From: a virus
Lineage: Duplodnaviria > Caudoviricetes
Reading direction: 5' to 3' (one strand)
IMG/VR virus record: IMGVR_UViG_3300029288_000110
Location: 37,759 to 101,758 of that record
Length of the DNA stretch: 64,000 bases
Shown: positions 1 through 63,283 of the stretch, piece after piece
Layout of the letters: every line of letters starts with the position of its first letter
Position numbering within the stretch: position 1 is the stretch's first letter
The notes under the pieces: generated by a model
Told to the model about the DNA's origin: nothing
Database searches by the model: none
Seen by the model: the letters and a program-made list of their open reading frames with translations, nothing else
Made by a program: the position numbers and the translations under genes

Positions 1-1238
1 AAGAGAGCGAGTACGATTACGCTATCCATGCCAAGTACACGCCGGAGCCGACCGCTTGTATCCGATGCGGGGTTATCGGGCAACTATACCGGCATGGTAT
101 CAAGAGGCAACGATTCATGGACTTACCAGTTCACAACAAGCGTGTTGGCTTGATAGTGCATCGGCAGCGTTACCTTTGCCGAGCCTGCAAAAAGACCAGC
201 TTTCAACCATTGCCGGATGTGGCTGACCACCACTCGTCAACCAAGAGGCTTTTAGCCTACATCGGCAAGGAATCCATGAAGCGTACCTTTGTTGGGGTAG
301 CCGATGATACCGGAATCCATGAGCGGACTATCCGGCGTTTATTCGCTATCGAGGTAGCCCGATTAGACCAAGAGGTCAAATTCGAGACACCCCGATGGTT
401 GGGGATTGATGAAGTTCACCTTGTAAAGAAGGCAAGGTGTCTCTTGACCAACGTGGAGCAACGGACTGTCATTGATATGCTGGCAACCAGAACAAAAGAC
501 GTGGTTAGCCGATACTTGTACCGGATGCCCGACCGCCAGTACATCGAGCTGGTGGCTATGGATATGTGGCAACCCTACAGGGACGCAGTAAGGGATATTC
601 TACCGCAAGCCACAGTGGTCATAGACCGCTTTCACGTTATCCGGTTAGCCATTCAGGGCATGGACACGATACGAAAGGATACCAGGGCGAGCCTTACGGC
701 ACGTCAAAGCCGGACACTCAAGCGTGACCGCTATATTCTTTTCCATCGCCGGAGCGACCTTGACGAACAAGACCAGTTCATACTTGACCTGTGGTTAGGG
801 CAGTTCCCTATGCTTGGCAAGGCGTATCAGTTCAAAGAGGACTTCTGTGACCTCTGGATGGTCAAGGACAGGCAAGAAGCCATAGAGCGGTATGAAAACC
901 TTAAGGCGAGCATCCCGACCGAGCTACAGCCCGCCTTCAAGCCTCTGACAACGGCTGTAGGCAACTGGACAGGCGAGATATTCGCATGGTGGGACCATCC
1001 GGTAACAAACGCTTATACAGAGGCCATAGCAGGGCTTGTGAAGCTAACCAACCATGCAGGCAGAGGGTATTCGTTCAAGGCGATACGGGCAAAGTTGCTT
1101 TACTCTAACCTGCCGACCCCTCACAGACCAGTGTTTGACAGGTCATTGAAAGAGCGACCGCCCTTCATGCCACTGGAAGAAATTATAGATTACGGAGTTA
1201 AGTTTTCCACACTCCGCATAATGTTGGAAGGGGGATAG
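1..1238 (+). CDS. ISL3-family transposase (5' end cut by window edge)
   Basis: Zn finger, LGIDE, AMDMW, DRFHV and TNAYTE motifs; identical to the C-terminal part of 61261-62541. Confidence 0.95.
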   Translation, partial: ESEYDYAIHAKYTPEPTACIRCGVIGQLYRHGIKRQRFMDLPVHNKRVGLIVHRQRYLCRACKKTSFQPLPDVADHHSSTKRLLAYIGKESMKRTFVGVADDTGIHERTIRRLFAIEVARLDQEVKFETPRWLGIDEVHLVKKARCLLTNVEQRTVIDMLATRTKDVVSRYLYRMPDRQYIELVAMDMWQPYRDAVRDILPQATVVIDRFHVIRLAIQGMDTIRKDTRASLTARQSRTLKRDRYILFHRRSDLDEQDQFILDLWLGQFPMLGKAYQFKEDFCDLWMVKDRQEAIERYENLKASIPTELQPAFKPLTTAVGNWTGEIFAWWDHPVTNAYTEAIAGLVKLTNHAGRGYSFKAIRAKLLYSNLPTPHRPVFDRSLKERPPFMPLEEIIDYGVKFSTLRIMLEGG

Positions 1239-1276
1239 TTTGTTTGAATGCATTACACATCATACGCCGGAAAGCC
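1..1276 (+). mobile_element. ISL3-family element, copy 1 (left part outside window)
   Basis: 1-1276 appears identical to 61304-62579; the copies diverge right after ...GCCGGAAAGCC, which defines IRR. Confidence 0.92.
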
Positions 1277-1639: not shown

Positions 1640-1667
1640 ACCTCCTACTGTATGTGGGATACTTACC
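1640..1667 (-). mobile_element. left end of a GGTAAGTAT-type gene cassette (partner end outside window)
   Basis: 28 bp identical to 5384-5411 (GGTAAGTATCCCACATACAGTAGGAGGT on minus strand). Confidence 0.8.
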
Positions 1668-3841: not shown

Positions 3842-4696
3842 TCACTCCCAGTCCTTTAAAAACGGATGGTATTTGAATATTTCTGCATCAACCTCCGGCA
3901 TCCGGGGAGTGGTGTAGATATTCATCATTCCGCCGCCGGCCCACCGCAAGAACTGATACACCCTTGTCTGGTCCAGGATACGCTTCCCATCCGCCCCCCT
4001 TAACTCATCCAATACCGTCGCCAGGCCATGGCGGACACCGTGGTAGCATTTTTTAGGAACGAATTTCACCCCGGCGACATTAGCTATCTCATGAAAAATG
4101 GAGAAGCGGCGATTATACCCCACGGGAGGATAAGTGTATTTGAACACAAAGGGGGCGATTTGCTCCGGCACGTCATGCTCCCGCAGCATACCGCCTTTCT
4201 CCGTATGGATGATGATGGTTTTCTTATACGGATGAATATCTTCCGACCGGACGCCAAAAAGTTCTCCGACCCGAAGGCCATATGTTGTCGAGAGCGCTAT
4301 GGTGTTCAACCACTGGGGATTGGAGCTCTTCTTGGCAGTCAGTATGAGCGCCCGGATTTCTTCCGCACTGTAGGAAAAGCGTGAGGCGAGGTCAATCATC
4401 TGCCGGTTCACCTTGGGCAGCTTCACCGGCACCCTTAGCCCATACATGCGGAAGAGGCAGCCTATCGGACCCCTGATGATGTAGTTTACATACGTTTGGT
4501 CTCGATTCTTCTTCAGATAGTCGAGATAGGTATAAAGCACATCACGCTCCTGCCAGTTCTTTCCCTTGAGCCAGGTGAAGTAATCATCCACATGCGCCCT
4601 GTACTGGCTCTTGGTCGATTCGCTATAGTACTGGATTTCGTGCTCTAGCTCTTTAAATATGGACTTCCTGTCTGTTGGTATTTTTTCCGTAGTCAT
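3842..4696 (-). CDS. tyrosine recombinase/integrase
   Basis: Catalytic residues in GLRVGE (R), EKGG (K), HGVRH, LRW and IYT (Y). Confidence 0.9.
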   Translation of the reverse strand: MTTEKIPTDRKSIFKELEHEIQYYSESTKSQYRAHVDDYFTWLKGKNWQERDVLYTYLDYLKKNRDQTYVNYIIRGPIGCLFRMYGLRVPVKLPKVNRQMIDLASRFSYSAEEIRALILTAKKSSNPQWLNTIALSTTYGLRVGELFGVRSEDIHPYKKTIIIHTEKGGMLREHDVPEQIAPFVFKYTYPPVGYNRRFSIFHEIANVAGVKFVPKKCYHGVRHGLATVLDELRGADGKRILDQTRVYQFLRWAGGGMMNIYTTPRMPEVDAEIFKYHPFLKDWE

Positions 4697-4712
4697 TACT
4701 ACTCCTCTACCC

Positions 4713-4925
4713 TCAGCGTTTAAAAGTCTTCCTCTCATGCGGTTTCTTCCGCTGGTAAGTAGCCTCCAAGGAAGTCATCTTGGGATTCCAGTGATAATCA
4801 ATCACCATCACATCACAACCCAGTTTCTTCCTGATAGCGCTTGTAACAGCGGAGGACCCGCACCCGGGCGCCTCATCAAATTCCTCCATGGTTATAGTTA
4901 TCTTTTCCGTATCAATATATTTCAC
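4713..4925 (-). CDS. hypothetical protein
   Basis: ORF with GGGAG RBS between the tRNA and the integrase. Confidence 0.6.
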   Translation of the reverse strand: MKYIDTEKITITMEEFDEAPGCGSSAVTSAIRKKLGCDVMVIDYHWNPKMTSLEATYQRKKPHERKTFKR

Positions 4926-4937
4926 TTTTCTCCCTTT

Positions 4938-5025
4938 TGGCGGAGCGGGAGAGATTTGAACTCCCGGGAGCAGGCCCCAACGGTTTTCGAGACCGCCGCC
5001 TTAAACCAGACTCGGCCACCGCTCC
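4938..5025 (-). tRNA. tRNA-Ser(CGA)
   Basis: Cloverleaf GGAGCGG...CCGCTCC-GCCA, anticodon loop CTCGAAA, long variable arm, encoded CCA. Confidence 0.93.
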
Positions 5026-5035
5026 AATATTCTTT

Positions 5036-5411
5036 GGTAAGTATACCTTCATCTACAGTATTTCTTGAAATTGGCCATAATCCTCATCTTCAAGTTCTGC
5101 CATCTCTGAATCAGTCTCGAATTGGCAATTTTCGCATAGTCCACTTTTGTTGAAATCGAAAAATTCGTTGCCGCCCCAAAACTCACCACACATCCAACAA
5201 AAGCCCTCTGAATGGCAATGTTCGCCGCAATACCAAGATATATCATATGGCTTTTCGCTTGATTCCCAATCAACTAACCTACATTGGATGGTATCAAAGG
5301 AGCTGCAACCTTCATGTTCACAACGATGATTGACTTCAACTAACTCTCTCTGAATCATATCGCCAATTTCTTTAATCATTTCGACCTCCTACTGTATGTG
5401 GGATACTTACC
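5036..5411 (-). mobile_element. non-autonomous single-gene insertion cassette (376 bp)
   Basis: Ends GGTAAGTATCCC / GGTATACTTACC; perfect 8-bp direct repeat TATTCTTT at 5028-5035 and 5412-5419. Confidence 0.88.
5053..5379 (-). CDS. Cys-rich acidic Zn-binding protein (cassette cargo)
   Basis: CEHEGC, CGEHC, CWMC and CENC motifs; RBS supplied by the cassette end. Confidence 0.75.
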   Translation of the reverse strand: MIKEIGDMIQRELVEVNHRCEHEGCSSFDTIQCRLVDWESSEKPYDISWYCGEHCHSEGFCWMCGEFWGGNEFFDFNKSGLCENCQFETDSEMAELEDEDYGQFQEIL

Positions 5412-5439
5412 TATTCTTTTAGCCTCTCTCTAATCCTTC

Positions 5440-6004: not shown

Positions 6005-6374
6005 CGCCTATTCCCCCTTCTTCTTTTCTTGCTTCTTCAATGGACTTTTGATTTATTGCTCTTTGGTAGGTGTAAATCTTAGATAAAATGCCATTTGCAT
6101 CCTCATAGGCATATTTTTTCAACCATTCAGGTGCCTTAGACCATGACTCAAAACAGTTGTCTGAATAGCTATATTTATATCTATCCCAAATATGTTTAGC
6201 AATCTTTTCCTTCACCTTTTTATCTATTGGTCGTTTAGTTAGAAACGTTAAAAACATCTTTGAATACTTTTGGTAATAGGAAAAATCTTCACAGGAACTA
6301 GTACAAAACTCCCACGAATTTTTACAGTTATTACAAGGACAACATTCTTTGGCTAAATCATCTTTTAATGTCAT
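5967..6374 (-). CDS. hypothetical protein, Cys-rich N-terminus
   Basis: 135-aa AT-rich ORF. Confidence 0.6.
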   Translation of the reverse strand: MTLKDDLAKECCPCNNCKNSWEFCTSSCEDFSYYQKYSKMFLTFLTKRPIDKKVKEKIAKHIWDRYKYSYSDNCFESWSKAPEWLKKYAYEDANGILSKIYTYQRAINQKSIEEARKEEGGIGDGLYLRTRTGRP

Positions 6375-8970: not shown

Positions 8971-9576
8971 TCAGTATGTATGTTTTGTCAAGATAGGCAC
9001 GGAAGCAAAGGGTTGCATAAAAGACTGGCCGGTTTGCTTCGCCAGGTTAAACTTATCCAGATTCTCTGCCGTTTGACCAGATTTTATTTCAAACAATAGC
9101 TTTGTCACTATCTTATGACATTTCACACATAAGGGAAGAAGGTTCCACCATACGTTGTAAGGAGTGACAACCCTTTTTGAGCCTTCGAGCGGAATGATAT
9201 GATGCACCTCAAGGTTGGTGCGGAAATGATACCTATCAAGTTGTACTTCCTTTTCCTCTTCTCCGCAGAACGCACAACGGTAACCATATCGCCGGAGAGC
9301 CCACCTGGAAGCATCGCTCCACCAGAAGAAAAGGTTATAAAATCTTGAACAGGAAATATAATCCCCATGGGACTTTTCCGGGCAATATCTTCGGGCGTAA
9401 TTACTGCTGGGAAAAGGTTTGCCGCACCAAAAGCAACCTCCCTGGCCTTCAAACCCGGTAATGATAGAGAATTTCCCGTATCTGTCTTTTCCTTCGGCTA
9501 TAGGCCATTTGACAAGTTCCACTACGCTCCGAGGGTAATTCCCTTCAATGGACTCTAAATCTACCGGATAGTTCAT
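8971..9576 (-). CDS. HNH endonuclease
   Basis: CAFC...EVHHIIP...NLLPLCVKCH. Confidence 0.85.
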   Translation of the reverse strand: MNYPVDLESIEGNYPRSVVELVKWPIAEGKDRYGKFSIITGFEGQGGCFWCGKPFPSSNYARRYCPEKSHGDYISCSRFYNLFFWWSDASRWALRRYGYRCAFCGEEEKEVQLDRYHFRTNLEVHHIIPLEGSKRVVTPYNVWWNLLPLCVKCHKIVTKLLFEIKSGQTAENLDKFNLAKQTGQSFMQPFASVPILTKHTY

Positions 9577-10073
9577 ATCTCACCTGCCTGATATTTCACT
9601 AAGGGGACATCATAAGCGATATAAAGTGGATGCTTCGGCTGACCGTCAGCGTTAGTCCCTAGGCAATATGGTTCTTTGAGCATCTGGAAAACCGCCGGCG
9701 CCCGTTTTTTCACCGGCTTAAACGAGCCCCATCCGCAGAGTTGGAGGTCCGACATCTGTATCATCAAGTGGAGGAAAGAATCGTTATACTCCCCAACGGC
9801 ATCAGGTTCGACAAGAAGCACCTTTGGGTCGCTAGACACTAAAGCATATAGGTTGGCCATGAGGAGGCCGCCAAAACCCATCCTGTCGGCTCTCACCACA
9901 ACCCGGGTAATCGTTGGGTCTGTTTTCACCTCATTGGCCGTTGAAGGATTAAGACCGATGACCATCAGGACGGGCCGGATGGAACTCCACATACGCCAAA
10001 GGGCATAGCGGTATTTCCTGTCATCGGAGAAAACGGCACCCTGGGGAAGGGTTAAATCAATACCTCTCATCAT
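9573..10073 (-). CDS. DUF1643 family protein
   Basis: YRYALWR, GLNPSTA..DPTI, G.PKHPLY. Confidence 0.9.
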   Translation of the reverse strand: MMRGIDLTLPQGAVFSDDRKYRYALWRMWSSIRPVLMVIGLNPSTANEVKTDPTITRVVVRADRMGFGGLLMANLYALVSSDPKVLLVEPDAVGEYNDSFLHLMIQMSDLQLCGWGSFKPVKKRAPAVFQMLKEPYCLGTNADGQPKHPLYIAYDVPLVKYQAGEI

Positions 10074-10273: not shown

Positions 10274-11166
10274 ACTGAGTTCCTACCCTCCTCAATATTC
10301 CATACAGATTGAGAGCATCTTTTGGCAGAAAGCTCTGCATATTTCTTACTTAACTCAATCCCGATACACTTCCGACCTAACTTTTTAGCTACTAAAGCCG
10401 TGGTGCCTGAACCAAGAAAGGGGTCAAGTATAATAGCATTGCTGCTACTAGCGAATATTTTTATTAACCTTGAGGGTATTTCTCCTGGAAATACCGCAGG
10501 GTGGTATTTATCTCGGCCCGGCTCCACAAACCAGACATCTTTTGTTTCATCTGCAAAAGGCACGGCTTTCTTTCCTCTTCTCCCAGTCCCGCCGGAATGA
10601 AACCATTGGTATTTTGAACCTAGAAGTATTATCTCGTGTGCAGGACGCATATAAGGGTCGGAGTCACATCCCATAGCGCAAGTTGTAGTTAATCCTATAG
10701 CTCCCTTCACCCATACGATTGGCTCCCGAACATGAGCATCTAATTCCATCATCATTGAAAATAGGCGGAATCCTAAAGGTTCAAGCCTTGCTTTTCCTTC
10801 CGTCTTCTCTTCTTTACGATGACTTTTGTAAGATGCATCATATCCGAACCAGGTATTAGCATAAAGATGGTCCCGTTGCCACCGGACAACGAGAGGAACA
10901 TTTATTCCAATCGTACCCCCTTTAACTAAAACCCGATAACATTGTTTTAAAACAATGTTCATCTTTTGATAATATTCCGCCCAAGATAATTGGTCACGAA
11001 AGCCACTATATTTCATCCGGGTGTTATACGGAGGAGATGTCGGTATTAAATCTATACAATCGGGTGGGATGGCGGGCAATATTTCCGTAGCATCACCATG
11101 TATGATATAAACGAATTCATCCGAATATATTGCGGAAGGAAGGTCAAGACTATTCCAAATTGACAT
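10270..11166 (-). CDS. N4-cytosine/N6-adenine DNA methyltransferase (beta class)
   Basis: TSPPY, HPAVFP, LDPFLGSGTT. Confidence 0.93.
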   Translation of the reverse strand: MSIWNSLDLPSAIYSDEFVYIIHGDATEILPAIPPDCIDLIPTSPPYNTRMKYSGFRDQLSWAEYYQKMNIVLKQCYRVLVKGGTIGINVPLVVRWQRDHLYANTWFGYDASYKSHRKEEKTEGKARLEPLGFRLFSMMMELDAHVREPIVWVKGAIGLTTTCAMGCDSDPYMRPAHEIILLGSKYQWFHSGGTGRRGKKAVPFADETKDVWFVEPGRDKYHPAVFPGEIPSRLIKIFASSSNAIILDPFLGSGTTALVAKKLGRKCIGIELSKKYAELSAKRCSQSVWNIEEGRNSV

Positions 11167-34817: not shown

Positions 34818-35789
34818 ATGTCTCTGAGAAACGTAAAGCTCTATAGCTATACCAGCCAAGTACAGATGGGTGGGTGGTGCAGCATTGTGTTAACCTTCGA
34901 TTATCTGGGCGGAGGAGCCCAGATAGAAACGTATTGCGCAATCGGAAACAATGGTATATTTGGTTTCAATGAGGTTATAAGCGCCAGCAATATCCGTGAT
35001 ATTCCCAGTGCTTCTTCATGGACAAAATTTTTCGTCTCGGCGTTAATTAGAATAACAGAAGAACTCGACCCAGCAAAAATCTATGATGTGTATGGAAAAG
35101 TCAGAGAAGTAGGTGGTGGGTGGAATATCTCTGATATTGCGGTAGATGCCGTATGGTTTGCTGGGATGGAAAGGGAAGACCAAACACTTGAAATAGATGT
35201 CTCTCCGGCAGATGGTGGATATGTTATCACAAATCCTGCAAGTAATGAGGGGAAGTCCAACTGGGTGAACGGTAATACGGGGACATTCCCCTACGGAACG
35301 GATGTTATAGTAAGAGCTGTCCCGTACAGTGGATTTAAGTTTGACCACTGGAGTGATGAGATTGTGGGTGGAGTAAGCACGAACAATCCGGCCCATGTTC
35401 AATCCATGACAGAACATCGGGCGATTAAAGCCCATTTTGTTTCGGAAACCGCTGATGAAGAGAAACTTATCATCAGCATTACCCCGACTGGAAAGGGTAG
35501 CGTAACGGCGTCTCCTCAACCCAATCATATTATCAGTAATGATTGGTATTACACTTATGGGACTATCGTTACTCTTACCGCTCACCCTATCAGTGGGTGG
35601 AAATTCAAAAAGTGGTCTGATGAGATATCCGGTGGCGTAAATACCTCCAACCCTGCACAGGTATCGGCCATGACGGAAACACGCACTGTTCTTTGTCACT
35701 TTGAAGAAATCGATGACGGAGGTAGTGATGATGGTGGAGGTGGTGATGGAGAATTCGATAATTTATCTGTAAAGATTAAGAGGGCTTGA
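34818..35789 (+). CDS. protein with two InlB B-repeat-like domains
   Basis: YGT.V...A.P..G.KF..WS twice. Confidence 0.8.
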   Translation: MSLRNVKLYSYTSQVQMGGWCSIVLTFDYLGGGAQIETYCAIGNNGIFGFNEVISASNIRDIPSASSWTKFFVSALIRITEELDPAKIYDVYGKVREVGGGWNISDIAVDAVWFAGMEREDQTLEIDVSPADGGYVITNPASNEGKSNWVNGNTGTFPYGTDVIVRAVPYSGFKFDHWSDEIVGGVSTNNPAHVQSMTEHRAIKAHFVSETADEEKLIISITPTGKGSVTASPQPNHIISNDWYYTYGTIVTLTAHPISGWKFKKWSDEISGGVNTSNPAQVSAMTETRTVLCHFEEIDDGGSDDGGGGDGEFDNLSVKIKRA

Positions 35790-35814
35790 CAAACGAAAAG
35801 GACTACATTAAACT
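35786..35814 (+). promoter_or_regulatory. sigma70 promoter of the putative capsid operon, overlapping the upstream TGA
   Basis: TTGACA-17-TAAACT. Confidence 0.65.
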
Positions 35815-35958
35815 AGGGTCGATGGTCCCCCGACGGGGGGGCAGAGGATAAAACTTAATAGGCGGGATGGCGCTCTTCCGTGAGGAAGGGGAAAAAGGCC
35901 ATCCCGCCTTTTCTTTTCTCCAGGAGAGCGCTACCGCCACCCAAGAAGGAGGAATCTC
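35815..35958 (+). promoter_or_regulatory. structured 5' leader with terminator hairpin and alternative helix
   Basis: 12-bp stem 35860-35871/35898-35909 plus U tract; alternative partner at 35923-35938. Confidence 0.6.
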
Positions 35959-36333
35959 ATGGGTAAGATTGAATGGAAAAACGTATTGGTGGGCGTAGGG
36001 GTAGGCGGTGCAGACGAAGTGCTCGGTTACTGGGATGAAAAATCCGGCAGAACGGGCCTTGGGACCGCCGTTAACATCGGGCGTGCCGCAATGGTAGCGC
36101 TCGGTGCCTTGGGCGTAGCGACCGGCTATTTCCATAAATATGCCGAGCCCGTCATGAATGCTGCGACCCCCCTGCTTACCAAGTCCGTTATCCAGGCTAT
36201 CCGCAACCAGGTGAATTCCGGCGCCACTACTGCTCGTCTCAGCCAAATGAATATCCCTTCCCGCAGGGTTATGTCAAGAGGCACAATATCGAGCGCAGGC
36301 CCGGGCTTTGAAAACTTACCGCCTATTTACTAA
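35959..36333 (+). CDS. putative major virion membrane protein
   Basis: Strong AGGAGG RBS; Gly/Ala-rich hydrophobic helices; basic tail. Confidence 0.7.
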   Translation: MGKIEWKNVLVGVGVGGADEVLGYWDEKSGRTGLGTAVNIGRAAMVALGALGVATGYFHKYAEPVMNAATPLLTKSVIQAIRNQVNSGATTARLSQMNIPSRRVMSRGTISSAGPGFENLPPIY

Positions 36334-36403
36334 AGGCAAGAGCATCCACTAGGAAATATTTAACCCAGTGGAATTTGTATAGCTACCCAAGGAGGTACAT
36401 ACA

Positions 36404-36988
36404 ATGGAAAATCTGACTTATGTTATTCCTACCGAGGAAATTGCTCTCTCCGAACAGGGACAGCGCCGGCAAGCAGCCATTTTAGCCGGGAAAAATCGTG
36501 CGGCAAAGTTATGGAATCAGCCAATAGGTAACCTTGTTGCCCGTGATGAGGACTATGTTCAGGATTTTATCACCCCCGCAACTCCGGCTCTGGTCGCCGG
36601 CCTGAGCGGGTGGCTCTCCATGCCGTTTGCGGCAGCCGGTGCGTGGTATAGCCTTTTCGCCAACAACACGCCGGCGGCTATCGCACCCGTGTGCCCTACC
36701 AACCAGATATGGGTATTCTACAAGGTCAGCATCCTCACCCTGGCCGGACCCGACCCCGTTAGTATGCTCCAGTTCCGCACGGGCACTGCGGCCAACCTGA
36801 AATACCAGTTCAACCTGGAAAACCTCTACGGGAAACAGGTCCAGGATGGCTACTTCTCCCTGCCAGTAACCTATGAGAACCCGGAAATCGCAACCGTACA
36901 GGCGAGGTCCCGTGTGCTTCTCGGCATTGGGTGCCGCATCAAACTGGGCACCTTCATCATTGAAACCATGCAGACCACGGTGGTCTAA
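36404..36988 (+). CDS. putative single jelly-roll major capsid protein
   Basis: AGGAGGT RBS; flanking hairpins; N-terminal helix then about eight beta strands (fold inferred). Confidence 0.6.
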   Translation: MENLTYVIPTEEIALSEQGQRRQAAILAGKNRAAKLWNQPIGNLVARDEDYVQDFITPATPALVAGLSGWLSMPFAAAGAWYSLFANNTPAAIAPVCPTNQIWVFYKVSILTLAGPDPVSMLQFRTGTAANLKYQFNLENLYGKQVQDGYFSLPVTYENPEIATVQARSRVLLGIGCRIKLGTFIIETMQTTVV

Positions 36989-37042
36989 AAAATAAAGGTC
37001 GAATTTCGCAAAGGTGAGTATTCTGAATAAGGAGAAAATATC

Positions 37043-37501
37043 ATGAGCGGAAAATTAAGCGCACTTTATACCAATACCCTGAACCCGGATTTAGTCCGGC
37101 AGGTGGTCGCACCGGCGGCTGCGGTTGCGGCTTCAGGTGCCGTCCCGCTATGGGGCGCCTGGAGCGACCTCGTACTTCCGGCTGCGGTGCTTTTGCCTAC
37201 CCTTTGTGTAGGTTTCAGCATCGATACCCCGAGCGTGCTGGAAAGCTGGACAATCCAGATAGGCAATGCCAGAGGATATGCTAACGCTGCGGCTGTTACA
37301 GCTGCTGGGGCTGCGGCTATCGCTGCGGCTGCCCGTCAGACACTAAGGACGGAAATCATCACCCTCGTCGGTGCGTATCCCATTTTCTACTTCAAATTCC
37401 CCATTGTGTTTAATCCCGGGGAAGGCATCATCGCCCGTTCCGGCACCGTCGGCGGCACCGATACCATCAACGTCAGTCCTTTCCTAGTAACCGGCTTCTA
37501 A
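37043..37501 (+). CDS. putative jelly-roll virion protein
   Basis: beta-rich; PIVFNPGEGI pattern. Confidence 0.55.
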   Translation: MSGKLSALYTNTLNPDLVRQVVAPAAAVAASGAVPLWGAWSDLVLPAAVLLPTLCVGFSIDTPSVLESWTIQIGNARGYANAAAVTAAGAAAIAAAARQTLRTEIITLVGAYPIFYFKFPIVFNPGEGIIARSGTVGGTDTINVSPFLVTGF

Positions 37502-37625
37502 ACGGAGCGGTTATCAGTTAACGGCCTTGGGGGAAGGAAATACTCTTCCCCCAAGTGGTTAACTTAAAACTAAATAAGCTCCCCGGAGTTCATGTCTCCT
37601 AGAGAGCGAAACGAAATAGGAGGTC

Positions 37626-38216
37626 GTGATGGATAATTTATATAATCCCTACAGTGCTGAGCCGATTGCTCCCATTACCCGGGTAAAAGAAAATCTCGGG
37701 CTATGGACGGGGCAAAAATACGAACCCTTCCGGGTTGATTACATTGAGCCGATTCTAAGGTCTTCACCATATGTAATCGATGTGCTCGCCCTCGTTGCCG
37801 GCGTCACTCAACTCGCAGCCAACTCAGCTGCTCAGGCGCAACTTGTCCCGGCGCTTCAGATGAATACCGGTGAACTTTTCCATGCGAGATGGTATCCACT
37901 GGATGATGTTGAGGGTGGACTCTATCAACTCGCAGGTATGCCGAGAAACAATATGAGAGGCGGGCAATCCCGCACCTCTCTCCAGACGTTGTTTGTTGAC
38001 CCCTACCTTTCTCAGACCACCTTCTGGATTTACGGCTCAACTCCGGCGAAGGATGCCTACATACAGGTATTTAATCCAAAGCCGGTTTTCTGCACTATCG
38101 CCAGGTTCGCCTACTTCGGGTTTCGCTACATCCTCGAAGCCCTGACTGGCATCACCTATACGGGAATTTATCCCAACGTACAAAACATAACTTATCTTCC
38201 TGCTCAGGGTAGATAG
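37626..38216 (+). CDS. putative jelly-roll capsid protein (second MCP candidate)
   Basis: AGGAGG RBS; beta-rich, 196 aa. Confidence 0.55.
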   Translation: MMDNLYNPYSAEPIAPITRVKENLGLWTGQKYEPFRVDYIEPILRSSPYVIDVLALVAGVTQLAANSAAQAQLVPALQMNTGELFHARWYPLDDVEGGLYQLAGMPRNNMRGGQSRTSLQTLFVDPYLSQTTFWIYGSTPAKDAYIQVFNPKPVFCTIARFAYFGFRYILEALTGITYTGIYPNVQNITYLPAQGR

Positions 38217-38228
38217 AAGGAGTATGAG

Positions 38229-38642
38229 ATGGTAATGCTTGAGAATGTAAGAAAAGGTATTATCGGCCCAAATAACAGCCCGGCGGCTGCGAGAGGGTTG
38301 GTAACTTCTACCCTCCTCGGTCCCGACCTCTGCCACCTGCATACGGTTGGCCGGACGGTACGCATCAGGAAGATACTATGGTATAACGCTACCGGCGCTG
38401 CTCGTAATCTTATCTTCGGCACGGTTACCAACATCATACCGGTGGCGCCAGGCACCTTTGTGCCTCTTCTTCCACCCATTGTGGCCGTCAACGGCGTGCA
38501 TGATATGATTACCGAAGCCGAATTGCCCGATGTGGAATTTATACCTGACCGGACAGCGGGGGCTGGTGGTCTGACCGGTGATATCTATCTGATGGCTGGT
38601 GTCGCCGGTGTCCTTGTACGCCTCGAAGTCGAAGAATATTAA
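38229..38642 (+). CDS. putative jelly-roll virion protein (penton candidate)
   Basis: VRIRKILWYN...VLVRLEVEEY beta pattern. Confidence 0.55.
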   Translation: MVMLENVRKGIIGPNNSPAAARGLVTSTLLGPDLCHLHTVGRTVRIRKILWYNATGAARNLIFGTVTNIIPVAPGTFVPLLPPIVAVNGVHDMITEAELPDVEFIPDRTAGAGGLTGDIYLMAGVAGVLVRLEVEEY

Positions 38643-38658
38643 GGTTGGAGGCTAACGC

Positions 38659-38790
38659 ATGGGTGAGCAGATTGATATCTCCAAAATAAAAGGTCCGGAA
38701 ATAAAAGACGCTGGGGCTATCATTGTAATAGTCTCGGGAAATATGACCGTATCATCCTCAGACTCTAAGGTACAGATAGTGAAGAATTGA
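38659..38790 (+). CDS. 43-aa hypothetical protein
   Basis: GGAGG RBS; overlaps the next start. Confidence 0.5.
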   Translation: MGEQIDISKIKGPEIKDAGAIIVIVSGNMTVSSSDSKVQIVKN

Positions 38791-39302
38791 TGCAAAATCC
38801 ATATGTTGTTCAATATCTTGAATCGCTTCATCGCTCCGATGGAAGTTTTCTATGCCTTCCATCAGCGAATCAGATTCTTGTGCCATCCGTCCCGCCTAAT
38901 ACGCTGTTGACTTATAATACAGCTCCGGCTCCTGGTGTCTATGCAGCGATAGGTTATGGGGTGACTTTTGACCATGCTATAGTCCCCGGTTCTTTTAGAA
39001 TGACAATCGTCCAATGGGGTGCCCAACCTATTTCTGGAATACTGACTTCCGACCTTATCGCCAATGGGATTGAATATATCGGATTTGTCACTTCTTCCCA
39101 AAAGGCCGCTAGCTCAATCACTAATATAACACCTATGAATCAGTATCTATGCCTGACGGGATATTATCTCAATATCATTTCTCAGGAAGATTATGTTGAG
39201 GTGGTCAATGCTTTGAGGAAACTCGGTACGGTCGATGCAGTAAAGATACTGAATACAATAGCAGGAGCTAAGAATCCTCTCCCGCCAGAAGGGAGCACTT
39301 AA
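38787..39302 (+). CDS. putative jelly-roll virion protein
   Basis: beta-rich core with C-terminal helix. Confidence 0.55.
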   Translation: MMQNPYVVQYLESLHRSDGSFLCLPSANQILVPSVPPNTLLTYNTAPAPGVYAAIGYGVTFDHAIVPGSFRMTIVQWGAQPISGILTSDLIANGIEYIGFVTSSQKAASSITNITPMNQYLCLTGYYLNIISQEDYVEVVNALRKLGTVDAVKILNTIAGAKNPLPPEGST

Positions 39303-59616: not shown

Positions 59617-59733
59617 ATGCCCTCCTAACTTGGTGAAATCTGAGTTGGGCTGGATGTTGGACTTCCGCAATTAGTTTCGGCTATTCGGCAAACTGTATAG
59701 AAACAGTATAGCATAATATTGTTGTACAGGGTA

Positions 59734-59762
59734 TTGACAAATAGGCAAACAGTGTGTATAAT
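59734..59762 (+). promoter_or_regulatory. consensus sigma70 promoter
   Basis: TTGACA-17-TATAAT. Confidence 0.8.
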
Positions 59763-59790
59763 AGGGTTAGAAAGTAAAGAAAAGGGGGAC

Positions 59791-59913
59791 ATGAAAATGC
59801 AATGCCCAACCTGCGGTAAAACCGCTAAGAGGATTAAGAGCAAGAAGTTCCCCGGCTGGTATTATTGCAATAACCCATCTTGCAATACAACCGCTTTTGA
59901 AAATAAGTCATAG
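59791..59913 (+). CDS. 40-aa Zn-ribbon peptide
   Basis: CPTC...CNNPSC; AGGGGG RBS. Confidence 0.6.
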   Translation: MKMQCPTCGKTAKRIKSKKFPGWYYCNNPSCNTTAFENKS

Positions 59914-59925
59914 GGAGGTAACATC

Positions 59926-60291
59926 ATGGGAATACGAGGACAAGGTAAGTTCACCACAAAGGCATCACGAAAACAAAACGATAAGTTCTTAGAGGAGTTC
60001 AAAACTCACCAATCAACATTCAAACAAGCCGATGTTGTACAAGTAGTCACTAAAGGTTGCGGGACATTCCCCGGACTTATTGTGGCTCGCATTTCAGTAA
60101 TGAGCGGGGAAACTGTCTATTCCGTAGCTGTTACACGCTATGGTGGTCTCTGGATTAAGGGCGACTGGGTTATAGATACCTACTGGAACCCGATTGGAGA
60201 CAAGGCACTTGAGCAAGATTATCCCGGCACGATGGAAGAGATTTTGAGCAAGTTACCAGTAATCAAAGCGTGGCAGGCGTCATTGCAATGA
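59926..60291 (+). CDS. hypothetical protein
   Basis: GGAGGT RBS. Confidence 0.7.
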   Translation: MGIRGQGKFTTKASRKQNDKFLEEFKTHQSTFKQADVVQVVTKGCGTFPGLIVARISVMSGETVYSVAVTRYGGLWIKGDWVIDTYWNPIGDKALEQDYPGTMEEILSKLPVIKAWQASLQ

Positions 60292-60584
60292 CAGACAATC
60301 AAAAGCAGGAAGTCATTAAATTACTAATCGGCTATTATCCTGCTGGTACATACCATGCAATACCAGAAGCCCTATTCCGGCTTGTCCGGCTACATGGCTT
60401 ATCCCTAAAGAAAGCCAAAGAGTTGCTATTAGAGGTTATACGACAAAACGGCTGGAGCATGTGCCCTAGTTCAATAGGAGCAATGACACTAGGAAATGTT
60501 AATGGAATGAGGGGCGAAAAGCGGATATTACAGTGGTACATACGGACTGATTGCTATTACACTCATTTTTATATCCTTAAATAG
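60288..60584 (+). CDS. hypothetical protein
   Basis: ATGA overlap with the upstream gene. Confidence 0.6.
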   Translation: MTDNQKQEVIKLLIGYYPAGTYHAIPEALFRLVRLHGLSLKKAKELLLEVIRQNGWSMCPSSIGAMTLGNVNGMRGEKRILQWYIRTDCYYTHFYILK

Positions 60585-60607
60585 GGTATCATAAAGGAGT
60601 CTTAAAA

Positions 60608-60793
60608 ATGTCTTCACCAAGTAACTACCCTCCCGGAGTATCAGGGTTTGAATTTCAAGTGAACCCGCCAGAGCGCTTACCCAAAGAACCTAGTAAAAGA
60701 CTCAAACCATGCAGTCATGCTATTAGCATTCCATATTGTTCTCATAGAACAACATCTGGTCTTTGCAGAGTAAGATGGTGCGATAAAGCGTAA
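60608..60793 (+). CDS. small Cys-rich protein (SNYPPGV motif)
   Basis: AGGAG RBS. Confidence 0.6.
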   Translation: MSSPSNYPPGVSGFEFQVNPPERLPKEPSKRLKPCSHAISIPYCSHRTTSGLCRVRWCDKA

Positions 60794-60845
60794 CTTATTA
60801 TGCAGGGGGTGACCCCATGCGGGGTAAAATAGATACGAATTTAGG

Positions 60846-61110
60846 GTGGTTACGAGTGGTCAAAACCAGACCAGTTAGCTACGGATGGTCAAACCGATAC
60901 CAGACCGCATTAGCTTTGGTGGTCAAACCGCTTAAAACCAGTCTAGACTTGATGGTTAGCCGGATAGCTTTTTGGCTGACCATGTTTACAAGACTGATTG
61001 TATCAGGGGGAGGGTTACCCTCTACCCCCCGACCCTTAAGCGTAAAAAGTGGGAGAACGTATTTGCTAGGTGCGTATGTGCTGGCAGTAGAAAACCCGTA
61101 TTTGCTGGAA
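60846..61110. repeat. two sets of iteron-like direct repeats separated by a GC hairpin
   Basis: TGGTCAAA at 60857, 60886, 60920; CGTATKTGCT at 61058, 61073, 61097; hairpin at ~61006-61030. Confidence 0.65.
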
Positions 61111-61120
61111 GTGAGAGCTA

Positions 61121-61264
61121 GTGAAAACCTGTAAAGAGCTAAAGTGTGTCTGCTTTGAGTGTCAGACACGGAAGAAAGACAGACCGAAATGCGGTATGTG
61201 TCCTGGGAGAATCGCCAAACCGGATTGTACAGGGCTTACCGTTTGCATTAAAGGGGATAAATGA
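61121..61264 (+). CDS. 47-aa peptide with eight Cys, coupled to the transposase
   Basis: Hand translation; its TGA overlaps the transposase ATG. Confidence 0.55.
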   Translation: MKTCKELKCVCFECQTRKKDRPKCGMCPGRIAKPDCTGLTVCIKGDK

Positions 61265-62541
61265 ACATCTTGAACTTGCCCGACTGGGAAGTCATAGAGC
61301 TTAAAGAGAGCGAGTACGATTACGCTATCCATGCCAAGTACACGCCGGAGCCGACCGCTTGTATCCGATGCGGGGTTATCGGGCAACTATACCGGCATGG
61401 TATCAAGAGGCAACGATTCATGGACTTACCAGTTCACAACAAGCGTGTTGGCTTGATAGTGCATCGGCAGCGTTACCTTTGCCGAGCCTGCAAAAAGACC
61501 AGCTTTCAACCATTGCCGGATGTGGCTGACCACCACTCGTCAACCAAGAGGCTTTTAGCCTACATCGGCAAGGAATCCATGAAGCGTACCTTTGTTGGGG
61601 TAGCCGATGATACCGGAATCCATGAGCGGACTATCCGGCGTTTATTCGCTATCGAGGTAGCCCGATTAGACCAAGAGGTCAAATTCGAGACACCCCGATG
61701 GTTGGGGATTGATGAAGTTCACCTTGTAAAGAAGGCAAGGTGTCTCTTGACCAACGTGGAGCAACGGACTGTCATTGATATGCTGGCAACCAGAACAAAA
61801 GACGTGGTTAGCCGATACTTGTACCGGATGCCCGACCGCCAGTACATCGAGCTGGTGGCTATGGATATGTGGCAACCCTACAGGGACGCAGTAAGGGATA
61901 TTCTACCGCAAGCCACAGTGGTCATAGACCGCTTTCACGTTATCCGGTTAGCCATTCAGGGCATGGACACGATACGAAAGGATACCAGGGCGAGCCTTAC
62001 GGCACGTCAAAGCCGGACACTCAAGCGTGACCGCTATATTCTTTTCCATCGCCGGAGCGACCTTGACGAACAAGACCAGTTCATACTTGACCTGTGGTTA
62101 GGGCAGTTCCCTATGCTTGGCAAGGCGTATCAGTTCAAAGAGGACTTCTGTGACCTCTGGATGGTCAAGGACAGGCAAGAAGCCATAGAGCGGTATGAAA
62201 ACCTTAAGGCGAGCATCCCGACCGAGCTACAGCCCGCCTTCAAGCCTCTGACAACGGCTGTAGGCAACTGGACAGGCGAGATATTCGCATGGTGGGACCA
62301 TCCGGTAACAAACGCTTATACAGAGGCCATAGCAGGGCTTGTGAAGCTAACCAACCATGCAGGCAGAGGGTATTCGTTCAAGGCGATACGGGCAAAGTTG
62401 CTTTACTCTAACCTGCCGACCCCTCACAGACCAGTGTTTGACAGGTCATTGAAAGAGCGACCGCCCTTCATGCCACTGGAAGAAATTATAGATTACGGAG
62501 TTAAGTTTTCCACACTCCGCATAATGTTGGAAGGGGGATAG
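61261..62541 (+). CDS. ISL3-family transposase
   Basis: CIRC/CRAC Zn finger, GIDE, MDMW, DRFHV, TNAYTE. Confidence 0.96.
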   Translation: MNILNLPDWEVIELKESEYDYAIHAKYTPEPTACIRCGVIGQLYRHGIKRQRFMDLPVHNKRVGLIVHRQRYLCRACKKTSFQPLPDVADHHSSTKRLLAYIGKESMKRTFVGVADDTGIHERTIRRLFAIEVARLDQEVKFETPRWLGIDEVHLVKKARCLLTNVEQRTVIDMLATRTKDVVSRYLYRMPDRQYIELVAMDMWQPYRDAVRDILPQATVVIDRFHVIRLAIQGMDTIRKDTRASLTARQSRTLKRDRYILFHRRSDLDEQDQFILDLWLGQFPMLGKAYQFKEDFCDLWMVKDRQEAIERYENLKASIPTELQPAFKPLTTAVGNWTGEIFAWWDHPVTNAYTEAIAGLVKLTNHAGRGYSFKAIRAKLLYSNLPTPHRPVFDRSLKERPPFMPLEEIIDYGVKFSTLRIMLEGG

Positions 62542-62612
62542 TTTGTTTGAATGCATTACACATCATACGCCGGAAAGCCATTAGATTCAGCTAATTCACC
62601 GGATTTATATAT

Positions 62613-63143
62613 GGTAAGTATCCCCCGATAGCCAGTAAAGGAGTGGAATGTTAAGTCAATTTAAAGGAGCCATTTTAGACAATTACAGAAAGCATCGTCT
62701 TTTGCTTTGGAGATTCTGGGATGACAGGCCAAAGATGCTATTTGTTGGTCTTAATCCATCAACGGCGAACGAGCTTCAAGATGACCCGACTATAAGACGC
62801 TTGTGTGACTTCGCCGAACGTTGGGGATACGGCGGTCTATATGCCTGTAATGTTTTCAGCCAGATAACCCCTTACCCCAAAGAGTTACTAGCTGAAACAG
62901 CTATTCATTCCGCTGATATCCATGCTATACAGATGGTTAATGAGCTTGTAGTTTTGGTTGTTTGTGGATGGGGAGACGGGATAGAAAAAGCCGCATATGG
63001 CATTGCCAGAGCTAACACAATTAAGTCACTTTTTAAAGAGCCAATGTGCTTTGGATTAACCGCCAAAGGAAACCCTAAGCACCCTGTACGTCTGCCGAAA
63101 GACACTGAATTAATGGAATACGGGTTATGAAGGGATACTTACC
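62613..63143 (+). mobile_element. non-autonomous single-gene insertion cassette (531 bp)
   Basis: Perfect 12-bp IR GGTAAGTATCCC/GGGATACTTACC; 8-bp direct repeat TTATATAT at 62605-62612 and 63144-63151. Confidence 0.9.
62648..63130 (+). CDS. DUF1643 family protein (cassette cargo)
   Basis: GLNPSTA...DDPTI, GNPKHP. Confidence 0.9.
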   Translation: MLSQFKGAILDNYRKHRLLLWRFWDDRPKMLFVGLNPSTANELQDDPTIRRLCDFAERWGYGGLYACNVFSQITPYPKELLAETAIHSADIHAIQMVNELVVLVVCGWGDGIEKAAYGIARANTIKSLFKEPMCFGLTAKGNPKHPVRLPKDTELMEYGL

Positions 63144-63283
63144 TTATATATTATATATAAGGAAGGAAGTAAGTAAACCTTAAACCCATAGTGCCCTGTG
63201 TGAGTGCGCGAGCGAGCGCGAGAAACAGAGCACTATCACACACCAAGGGGTAAGAGTAACCAAAAACGGGAGGAAAAAAGAAA

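Follow-up and report, generated by a model that had tools for sequence, protein, structure and literature searches.

The locus reported here fits two kinds of mobile element as they are defined in PMC3129680 and in papers cited there, namely mobile insertion cassettes (MICs) and insertion sequences (ISs) with passenger genes. An example of the former is MIC231 from Bacillus cereus, which belongs to the IS231/IS4 family (De Palmenaer et al. 2004, cited in PMC3129680), and IS1595-family elements with passenger genes have been described as "transporter IS" (Siguier, Gagnevin and Chandler 2009, cited in PMC3129680). Mycobacteriophages harbor the ultra-small elements MPME1 and MPME2, which are ~0.4 kb long, bounded by inverted repeats and endowed with one small ORF (PMC3029335; Sampson et al. 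2009). MPMEs add 6 bp at one end and do not make an 8-bp duplication (PMC3029335).

Here, we describe a 376-bp phage cassette that is very probably a non-autonomous MIC of the IS1595 family, mobilized in trans and belonging to a family in which accessory genes have been exchanged within one chassis. Both the MIC and the IS with passenger genes are already known; what is new is the fixed translation adaptor, together with the range of cargo found behind identical ends. We infer from sequence comparison that the element moves in trans and that its gene is expressed by read-through, and any mechanism for exchanging cargo is likewise inferred.

The source genome is that of a phage in a landfill metagenome, represented by a 101,758-bp IMG/VR virus record with an estimated completeness of 97%. 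The window, that is, the whole stretch of DNA analyzed, is the right 64 kb of this record, and positions refer to the window unless a contig is named. The genome encodes an integrase beside a tRNA-Ser, DNA methylases, a helicase loader and a sliding clamp. The tyrosine integrase gene (phrog_1; 3842-4738, minus strand) lies directly downstream, on the 3' side, of a complete tRNA-Ser(CGA) gene (4938-5025, minus strand), which identifies the phage as temperate and the tRNA as its probable attachment site. A search with this integrase found no relatives. Comparison of the tRNA-Ser with five MAGs that have the same IS ends gave no support for a particular host, the best match being only 72% identical, and 7 of the 11 MAG-contig matches to the inner repeat are labeled Dehalococcoidia or Dehalococcoidales.

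The cassette spans positions 5036-5411, contains one credible gene and is flanked on both sides by a perfect 8-bp target-site duplication, TATTCTTT, at 5028-5035 (2 nt from the 5' end of the tRNA-Ser) and 5412-5419. On the plus strand its tips are GGTAAGTATACC (5036-5047) and GGGATACTTACC (5400-5411), which match at 11 of 12 positions as inverted repeats; the repeat extends from these 12 bp to ~22-25 bp when one 3-nt indel is allowed. The right, cargo-distal terminal repeat (5036-5060, minus strand), which reads GGTAAGTATACCTTCATCTACAGTA on the plus strand, has the TTCATCTACAGTA variant found in sister cassettes; on the cargo strand it contains TACTGTAGATGAAGG, with stop codons (TAG and TGA) in two frames. 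The left terminal repeat (5390-5411, minus strand) reads GGTAAGTATCCCACATACAGTA on the cargo strand, which is the family consensus GGTAAGTATCCCTTGACATACAGTA minus TTG. A Shine-Dalgarno (SD) sequence, AGGAGGT (5384-5390, minus strand), shares its first base with the end of the left repeat and stops 5 nt ahead of the ATG (5379-5377) of the 108-aa cargo gene (5053-5379, minus strand), whose last two codons and TAG stop codon (5053-5055) lie within the right repeat. The start codon is at element position 33, which corresponds to 36 minus the TTG deletion. The first-pass annotation had described a 376-bp unit with one gene and a perfect 8-bp duplication, and this description was borne out in full.

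The cargo protein is rich in Cys and His and has an acidic tail. It had no match in Pfam, PHROG or NCBIfam, and a protein atlas search with it returned only unnamed viral clusters. Its homologues are 47-63% identical, with H18, C20, H22, C25, C33, C51, H54, C55, H56, C61, C64, C82 and C85 invariant; an AlphaFold2 model built on a 4-sequence alignment had a mean pLDDT of 46, too poor for a fold search. One homologue, on L121, is 62% identical to the cargo and collinear with it from residue 1 to the stop codon, and is an ordinary operon gene without IS ends. Native homologues of both this Cys-rich protein and DUF1643, the cargo of a sister cassette in the window, occur in one phage operon of L121 (3001-3321 and 4696-5196); the ordinary gene pool of phages is thus the source of the cargo. 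The window itself also has a diverged DUF1643 gene that is not enclosed by cassette ends (9573-10073, minus strand).

Several lines of evidence place the cassette in the IS1595 family: the 8-bp duplication, which is of the same length at sister cassettes and autonomous elements, and terminal repeats that are shared with transposase-encoding elements. Candidate ISfinder subgroups for the cassette are the ISSod11, ISNwi1 and ISPna2 types. An autonomous IS of this family would encode a DDE transposase with an N-terminal zinc ribbon; the sole ORF of the cassette encodes the 108-aa protein without a family match, and the whole 101.8-kb record contains no IS1595 transposase (no PF12762 match). What is found instead is a pair of IS ends around a gene not involved in transposition, as in a MIC. 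The resemblance to MIC231, as portrayed in PMC3129680, is that IS repeats flank non-transposase genes, that various cargo lies behind the same ends and, as predicted for the phage cassettes, that the cognate transposase acts in trans. In contrast to MIC231 as portrayed there, the phage cassettes belong to the IS1595 family, make an 8-bp duplication and carry one ORF each, co-oriented with operons; moreover, their left end, with its SD and spacer, fixes the start codon at position 36 and their right repeat gives the stop codon. The IS1595 transporter ISs summarized in the same source have the same terminal repeats and the same 8-bp duplication, whereas the cassette is without a transposase and has a derived right end that lacks the -35 hexamer.

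Other classes of small elements were considered and rejected. MITEs are non-coding and usually under ~300 bp. They are likewise short, non-autonomous, bounded by terminal repeats and a duplication and, as predicted for the cassette, mobilized in trans, but the phage cassette is filled with a gene almost from edge to edge, 327 of its 376 bp being a conserved ORF with homologues at 47-63% identity. Integron gene cassettes carry attC at their 3' end and are inserted at attI by the IntI integrase. The phage cassettes resemble them in being promoterless and roughly ORF-sized, in carrying unrelated cargo that would be expressed from outside and in having boundaries tight to the ORF, but they are dispersed rather than arrayed, have boundaries made by a DDE transposase and bring an SD of their own. 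For the cassette at 5036-5411, the ends are inverted repeats with an 8-bp duplication, the only nearby tyrosine recombinase is the phage integrase and there is no array. The term "integron-like" in the first-pass annotation applies to the effect alone; attC and IntI are both lacking. MPMEs are similar as inverted-repeat-bounded, ~0.4-kb mobile phage elements with one small ORF; however, they carry one conserved ORF of their own, have neither diverse cargo nor IS1595 ends and, according to PMC3029335, show a 6-bp addition at one end rather than an 8-bp duplication.

The whole record contains three complete cassettes, two of them in the window, and two solo left ends (window 1640-1667 and contig 35756). 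The sister cassette "C" and its two TTATATAT duplications occupy 62605-63151 on the plus strand; the element itself (62613-63143) is 531 bp long and has perfect 12-bp repeats. Its DUF1643 cargo (62648-63130, plus strand) starts at element position 36, ends with a TGA within the right repeat and is six residues shorter (trimmed) than a native homologue. The solo left end "B" (1640-1667, minus strand) is identical to 5384-5411 at 28 of 28 positions, including AGGAGGT, and precedes a different ORF (MKHKTKL..), which an ISL3-type end interrupts after 21 codons. Both the identity of these left ends and the sharing of the right end with the 62613-63143 cassette, which carries an unrelated gene, had been pointed out beforehand, and both were borne out. 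The third complete cassette, which is decayed, lies outside the window in a structural operon on the plus strand (contig 10545-11003; L020 1046-1504). It is 459 bp long, its duplication (AAAAATGA / AAAGATGA) matches at 7 of 8 positions, and its 136-aa cargo, for which no family match was found, starts at position 36 and stops inside the right repeat. The other solo left end, AGTAACTATCCCATGACATACAGTAGGAGG, is degenerate and likewise lies outside the window (contig 35756-36108; L021 1257-1609); a YopX-domain gene comes after it, with no right end recognized ahead of the ISL3 copy. An exact 27-mer of the TTG-deleted left end was absent from the viral contigs searched.

A search for the cognate autonomous IS had been proposed as a check, and we scanned viral contigs with the 17-nt right end to find elements with the same ends. 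The scan yielded elements of 1,484-1,672 bp that have the same tips and perfect 8-bp duplications and encode a 291-298-aa protein each (PF12762 plus PF12760): a 1,672-bp element in L010 and L054 (duplication GGATATAA), a 1,502-bp element in L011 and a 1,484-bp element in L017. NCBIfam names these proteins IS1595 family transposases (NF033547, ~208-222 bits compared to a cut-off of 75). The closest autonomous type, a 1,903-bp element in L103 with duplication TTAATTTA, has GGTAAGTATCCCTTGACATACAGTA at both ends and encodes a 307-aa transposase and a convergent 278-aa passenger gene, and elements with cassette-type ends in other viral contigs measure 1.5-1.9 kb. The 12-bp tips of the cassette and, apart from the 3-nt deletion, its inner repeat are also found on L103, L054, L046 and L055. 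The consensus repeat of the autonomous elements is GGnnnnTATCCCTTGACAnCAnGTA; at the transposase-side end, TTGACA is followed by 17 nt and then a -10 hexamer. In the autonomous relatives L103, L054, L011 and L017, passenger genes lie beside an end and have the same leader. A transposase profile search matched 237 viral contigs, and ~37 of the 80 transposase loci kept have family-type repeats with an exact 8-bp duplication. With lengths of 1.2-3.6 kb, these elements commonly include passenger genes.

Three further observations concern these elements. A 475-aa open frame runs antisense across the transposase and passenger genes of the 1,672-bp IS (L054 2877-4304, minus strand) and is probably spurious. 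In L109, a 697-bp cassette, a ~320-bp cassette and one further IS1595 end all fall within 1.3 kb (506-1800), and in L046 (2837-4508) an IS abuts the end of another element, tip to tip. Existing IS1595 ends may attract new insertions.

In total, 20 complete transposase-less cassettes of 300-781 bp, representing ~30 distinct cargo genes, were found: three in this genome, four in viral contigs, two in MAG contigs and 11 in metagenome contigs, those outside this genome through inner-repeat searches. Thus the further copies that the first-pass annotation had suggested looking for exist both in this genome (three complete cassettes and two solo ends) and elsewhere (17 complete cassettes). Each of the 20 has its own 8-bp duplication at a different target, perfect in 19 cases and 7/8 in one. 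Among the cargo that could be identified are N6/N4 DNA methylases, present in several cassettes, as well as DUF1643, YopX and a nucleoside 2-deoxyribosyltransferase; many other cargo proteins belong to no family. An arrangement of SD and spacer like that at 5036-5411 is common to sister cassettes with other cargo. In the chassis, the conserved left end takes up ~35 nt and consists of the repeat, the SD and the spacer, the ATG following at 36; the right end takes up ~27 nt. Of the 25 distinct cargoes of the metagenome set, 17 begin at element position 36; in a comparison of nine cassettes the start codon is at 36 in six, and at 33 in the 5036-5411 unit. By comparison, a GGAGR-to-start spacing of 5 nt is found at only 17% of SD-bearing starts in this genome and 24% in other loci; the leader thus belongs to the conserved end, and cargo is joined to it at the start codon. 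All right ends of complete cassettes are of the TTCATCTACAGTA variant, which is at neither end of the L103 element, and in many cassettes the stop codon is 13 or 17 nt from the tip. Cargo boundaries, which had been named as a point to check, are tied to ORF ends and are not random. A search of viral contigs for an empty chassis, defined as two repeats no more than 30 nt apart, yielded none. Given the shared derived right end and the fixed leader, we argue that one chassis is likely to have spread while its cargo was replaced many times. Replacement may have come about through junctions formed at microhomology and then selected, or through a dedicated loading step.

The sites of insertion are also informative. 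The duplicated 8-mers are 82% A+T, compared to 54% in the flanks, and many start with a stop codon; insertions thus fall into gaps between genes. Where flanks have a clear coding strand, it is the cargo strand in 17 of 20 cases (17 to 3). No terminator-like site was found in the cassette region, and promoter-like matches were not above chance. Consistent with the earlier description of the cassette as promoterless, no -10 hexamer follows the TTGACA of the repeat, and the 5036-5411 copy has additionally lost the TTG of the -35 hexamer. The cassette is on the same strand as the tRNA-Ser and lies 10 nt upstream of it, so transcription of the tRNA-Ser must cross the cassette. Judging from these sequence features, the cargo is presumably expressed by read-through transcription.

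In the mechanism that we propose, an IS1595-family DDE transposase would make a staggered 8-bp cut at TATTCTTT, an A+T-rich intergenic 8-mer, and would join both ~25-bp terminal repeats to the cut target. The transposase would be supplied in trans by the host or by a co-infecting element with the same repeats. Having neither promoter nor terminator and being co-directional with the surrounding minus-strand genes, the cassette would have its cargo transcribed by read-through, and translation would begin from the SD directly after the left repeat and end at the stop codon provided by the right repeat. Unrelated phage accessory genes would be swapped within the one conserved chassis. These findings support the first-pass reading of transposase-driven cassettes that carry accessory genes into viral operons, with mobilization in trans as the predicted component.

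An orthologous empty site, also proposed as a check, was found for a sister cassette but not for the 5036-5411 copy. The L010 site that contains the 748-bp methylase cassette has an uninterrupted counterpart in the related phage L105, located between the same two genes (71% nucleotide identity). For 5036-5419, an exact 22-mer across the reconstructed empty site had no match in viral or metagenome contigs, and the contigs of four runs contained no joint that removes this segment; one X2 contig joins 5064 to 5372, with content in between. The consensus left end with TTG is present at high depth in the same runs. The filled junction of the 5036-5411 cassette also occurs in a landfill sample of a second study, suggesting that this copy may be fixed. 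With a left repeat 3 nt short and a mismatch in its right tip, it may no longer be a good substrate. Two candidate sites were set aside: L015, whose flanks are alike (TAATCTTT compared to TATTCTTT) but which has no tRNA there, and L109, which matches at 97.5% across the junction of the L046 IS yet differs by 6 nt at the junction itself and is not a clean empty site.

The condition of this copy invites a different interpretation, namely that a single insertion brought in a full-length IS1595 element together with a passenger gene, and that the element then lost its transposase through an internal deletion and has been immobile since. The deletion in the left repeat, the mismatch in the right tip, the failure to find an empty site for 5036-5411, the identical junction in samples of two studies and the genome's lack of a transposase would all be expected of such a relic. 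Yet the TTG-deleted left end is present twice in this genome, identical at all 28 positions and ahead of two different ORFs, which implies that the variant propagated or recombined after the deletion arose. In addition, the derived TTCATCTACAGTA right end shared by all complete cassettes and absent from L103 points to one chassis rather than many separate deletions. We consider a relic possible but somewhat unlikely.

A second interpretation takes the ends as short homology arms for phage recombinases, with genes shuffled by homologous exchange, for which the regulatory stem-loop cassettes of T4-type phages offer an analogue. Identical ends (~35 and 27 nt) around unrelated genes and the fixed position of the start codon are compatible with such modules, which could also account for cargo exchange between existing cassettes. 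However, homologous exchange does not make the 8-bp duplications, one for each complete cassette and perfect in 19 of 20 (7/8 in the other), and could not on its own create a new cargo junction; the ends are, moreover, those of transposase-bearing IS1595 elements, so that this interpretation is highly improbable. Coincidence of a chance inverted repeat and a chance flanking repeat around an ordinary phage gene has nothing in its favor except that the perfect part of the repeat is short (12 bp), and its probability is negligible: with one mismatch allowed, the tip 12-mer has 7 matches in the window compared to 0.63 expected (~11-fold enrichment) and none of 100 shuffles reached 7, perfect 8-bp duplications number two in the window and a further 17 elsewhere, and IS1595 elements bear the same ends.

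Beyond the reading of the cassette as a trans-mobilized MIC, we tentatively raise the idea, itself unlikely, that the ends are a transposon-borne expression adaptor and that a regular process loads whole ORFs into them exactly at the start codon. The observations that lead to it are the one derived chassis, the ~30 unrelated cargoes and a frequency of starts at position 36 far above that of native SD spacing. If it were true, the family would be, for the accessory genes of phages, the transposase-driven equivalent of integron cassettes. Such genes, including anti-restriction methylases and nucleotide-modifying enzymes, turn over quickly by routes that are poorly known. The cassette family offers a concrete route for this turnover, in which a minimal IS1595 chassis would enter A+T-rich intergenic gaps, leave the operon intact and deliver a translation-ready gene. 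Start-codon-precise exchange of cargo poses the same question as the origin of integron cassettes, and here the junctions are open to study, since natural examples are numerous and a native donor gene can be identified (L121). The 35-nt and 27-nt ends could also be used to search metagenomes for mobile phage genes and to catalogue them.

The same genome contains a second type of mobile element. Window positions 1-1276 and 59669-62579 (contig 36125-39034 and 97427-100337) are part of a 2.9-kb direct repeat with 99.93% identity. The repeated unit is an element of the ISL3 family that encodes a 426-aa transposase (NF033550, 274 bits) and carries ~1.6 kb of passenger DNA. The flanks of copy 1 are ATTAGATT / TCTCTTTC and those of copy 2 are TTAGTTTC / ATTAGATT, an exchange that suggests that the copies recombined, that a cointegrate formed or that the assembly ran through the repeat. 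In the groundwater run X4, a contig matching 6002-6372 runs on into the ISL3 right end at window position 6372, so the ISL3 element occupies another site in a relative of this phage. Within 1263-1571 on the minus strand, the ISL3 left end recurs as a 15-nt copy, GGCTATTCGGCAAAC, followed by AGGAGG and a 93-aa ORF that terminates within the ISL3 right end, at 1276; this segment interrupts the ORF behind solo end "B", and a similar segment (88%) is found in L063 (3218-3267). ISL3 ends may constitute a second cassette family with a built-in ribosome-binding site.
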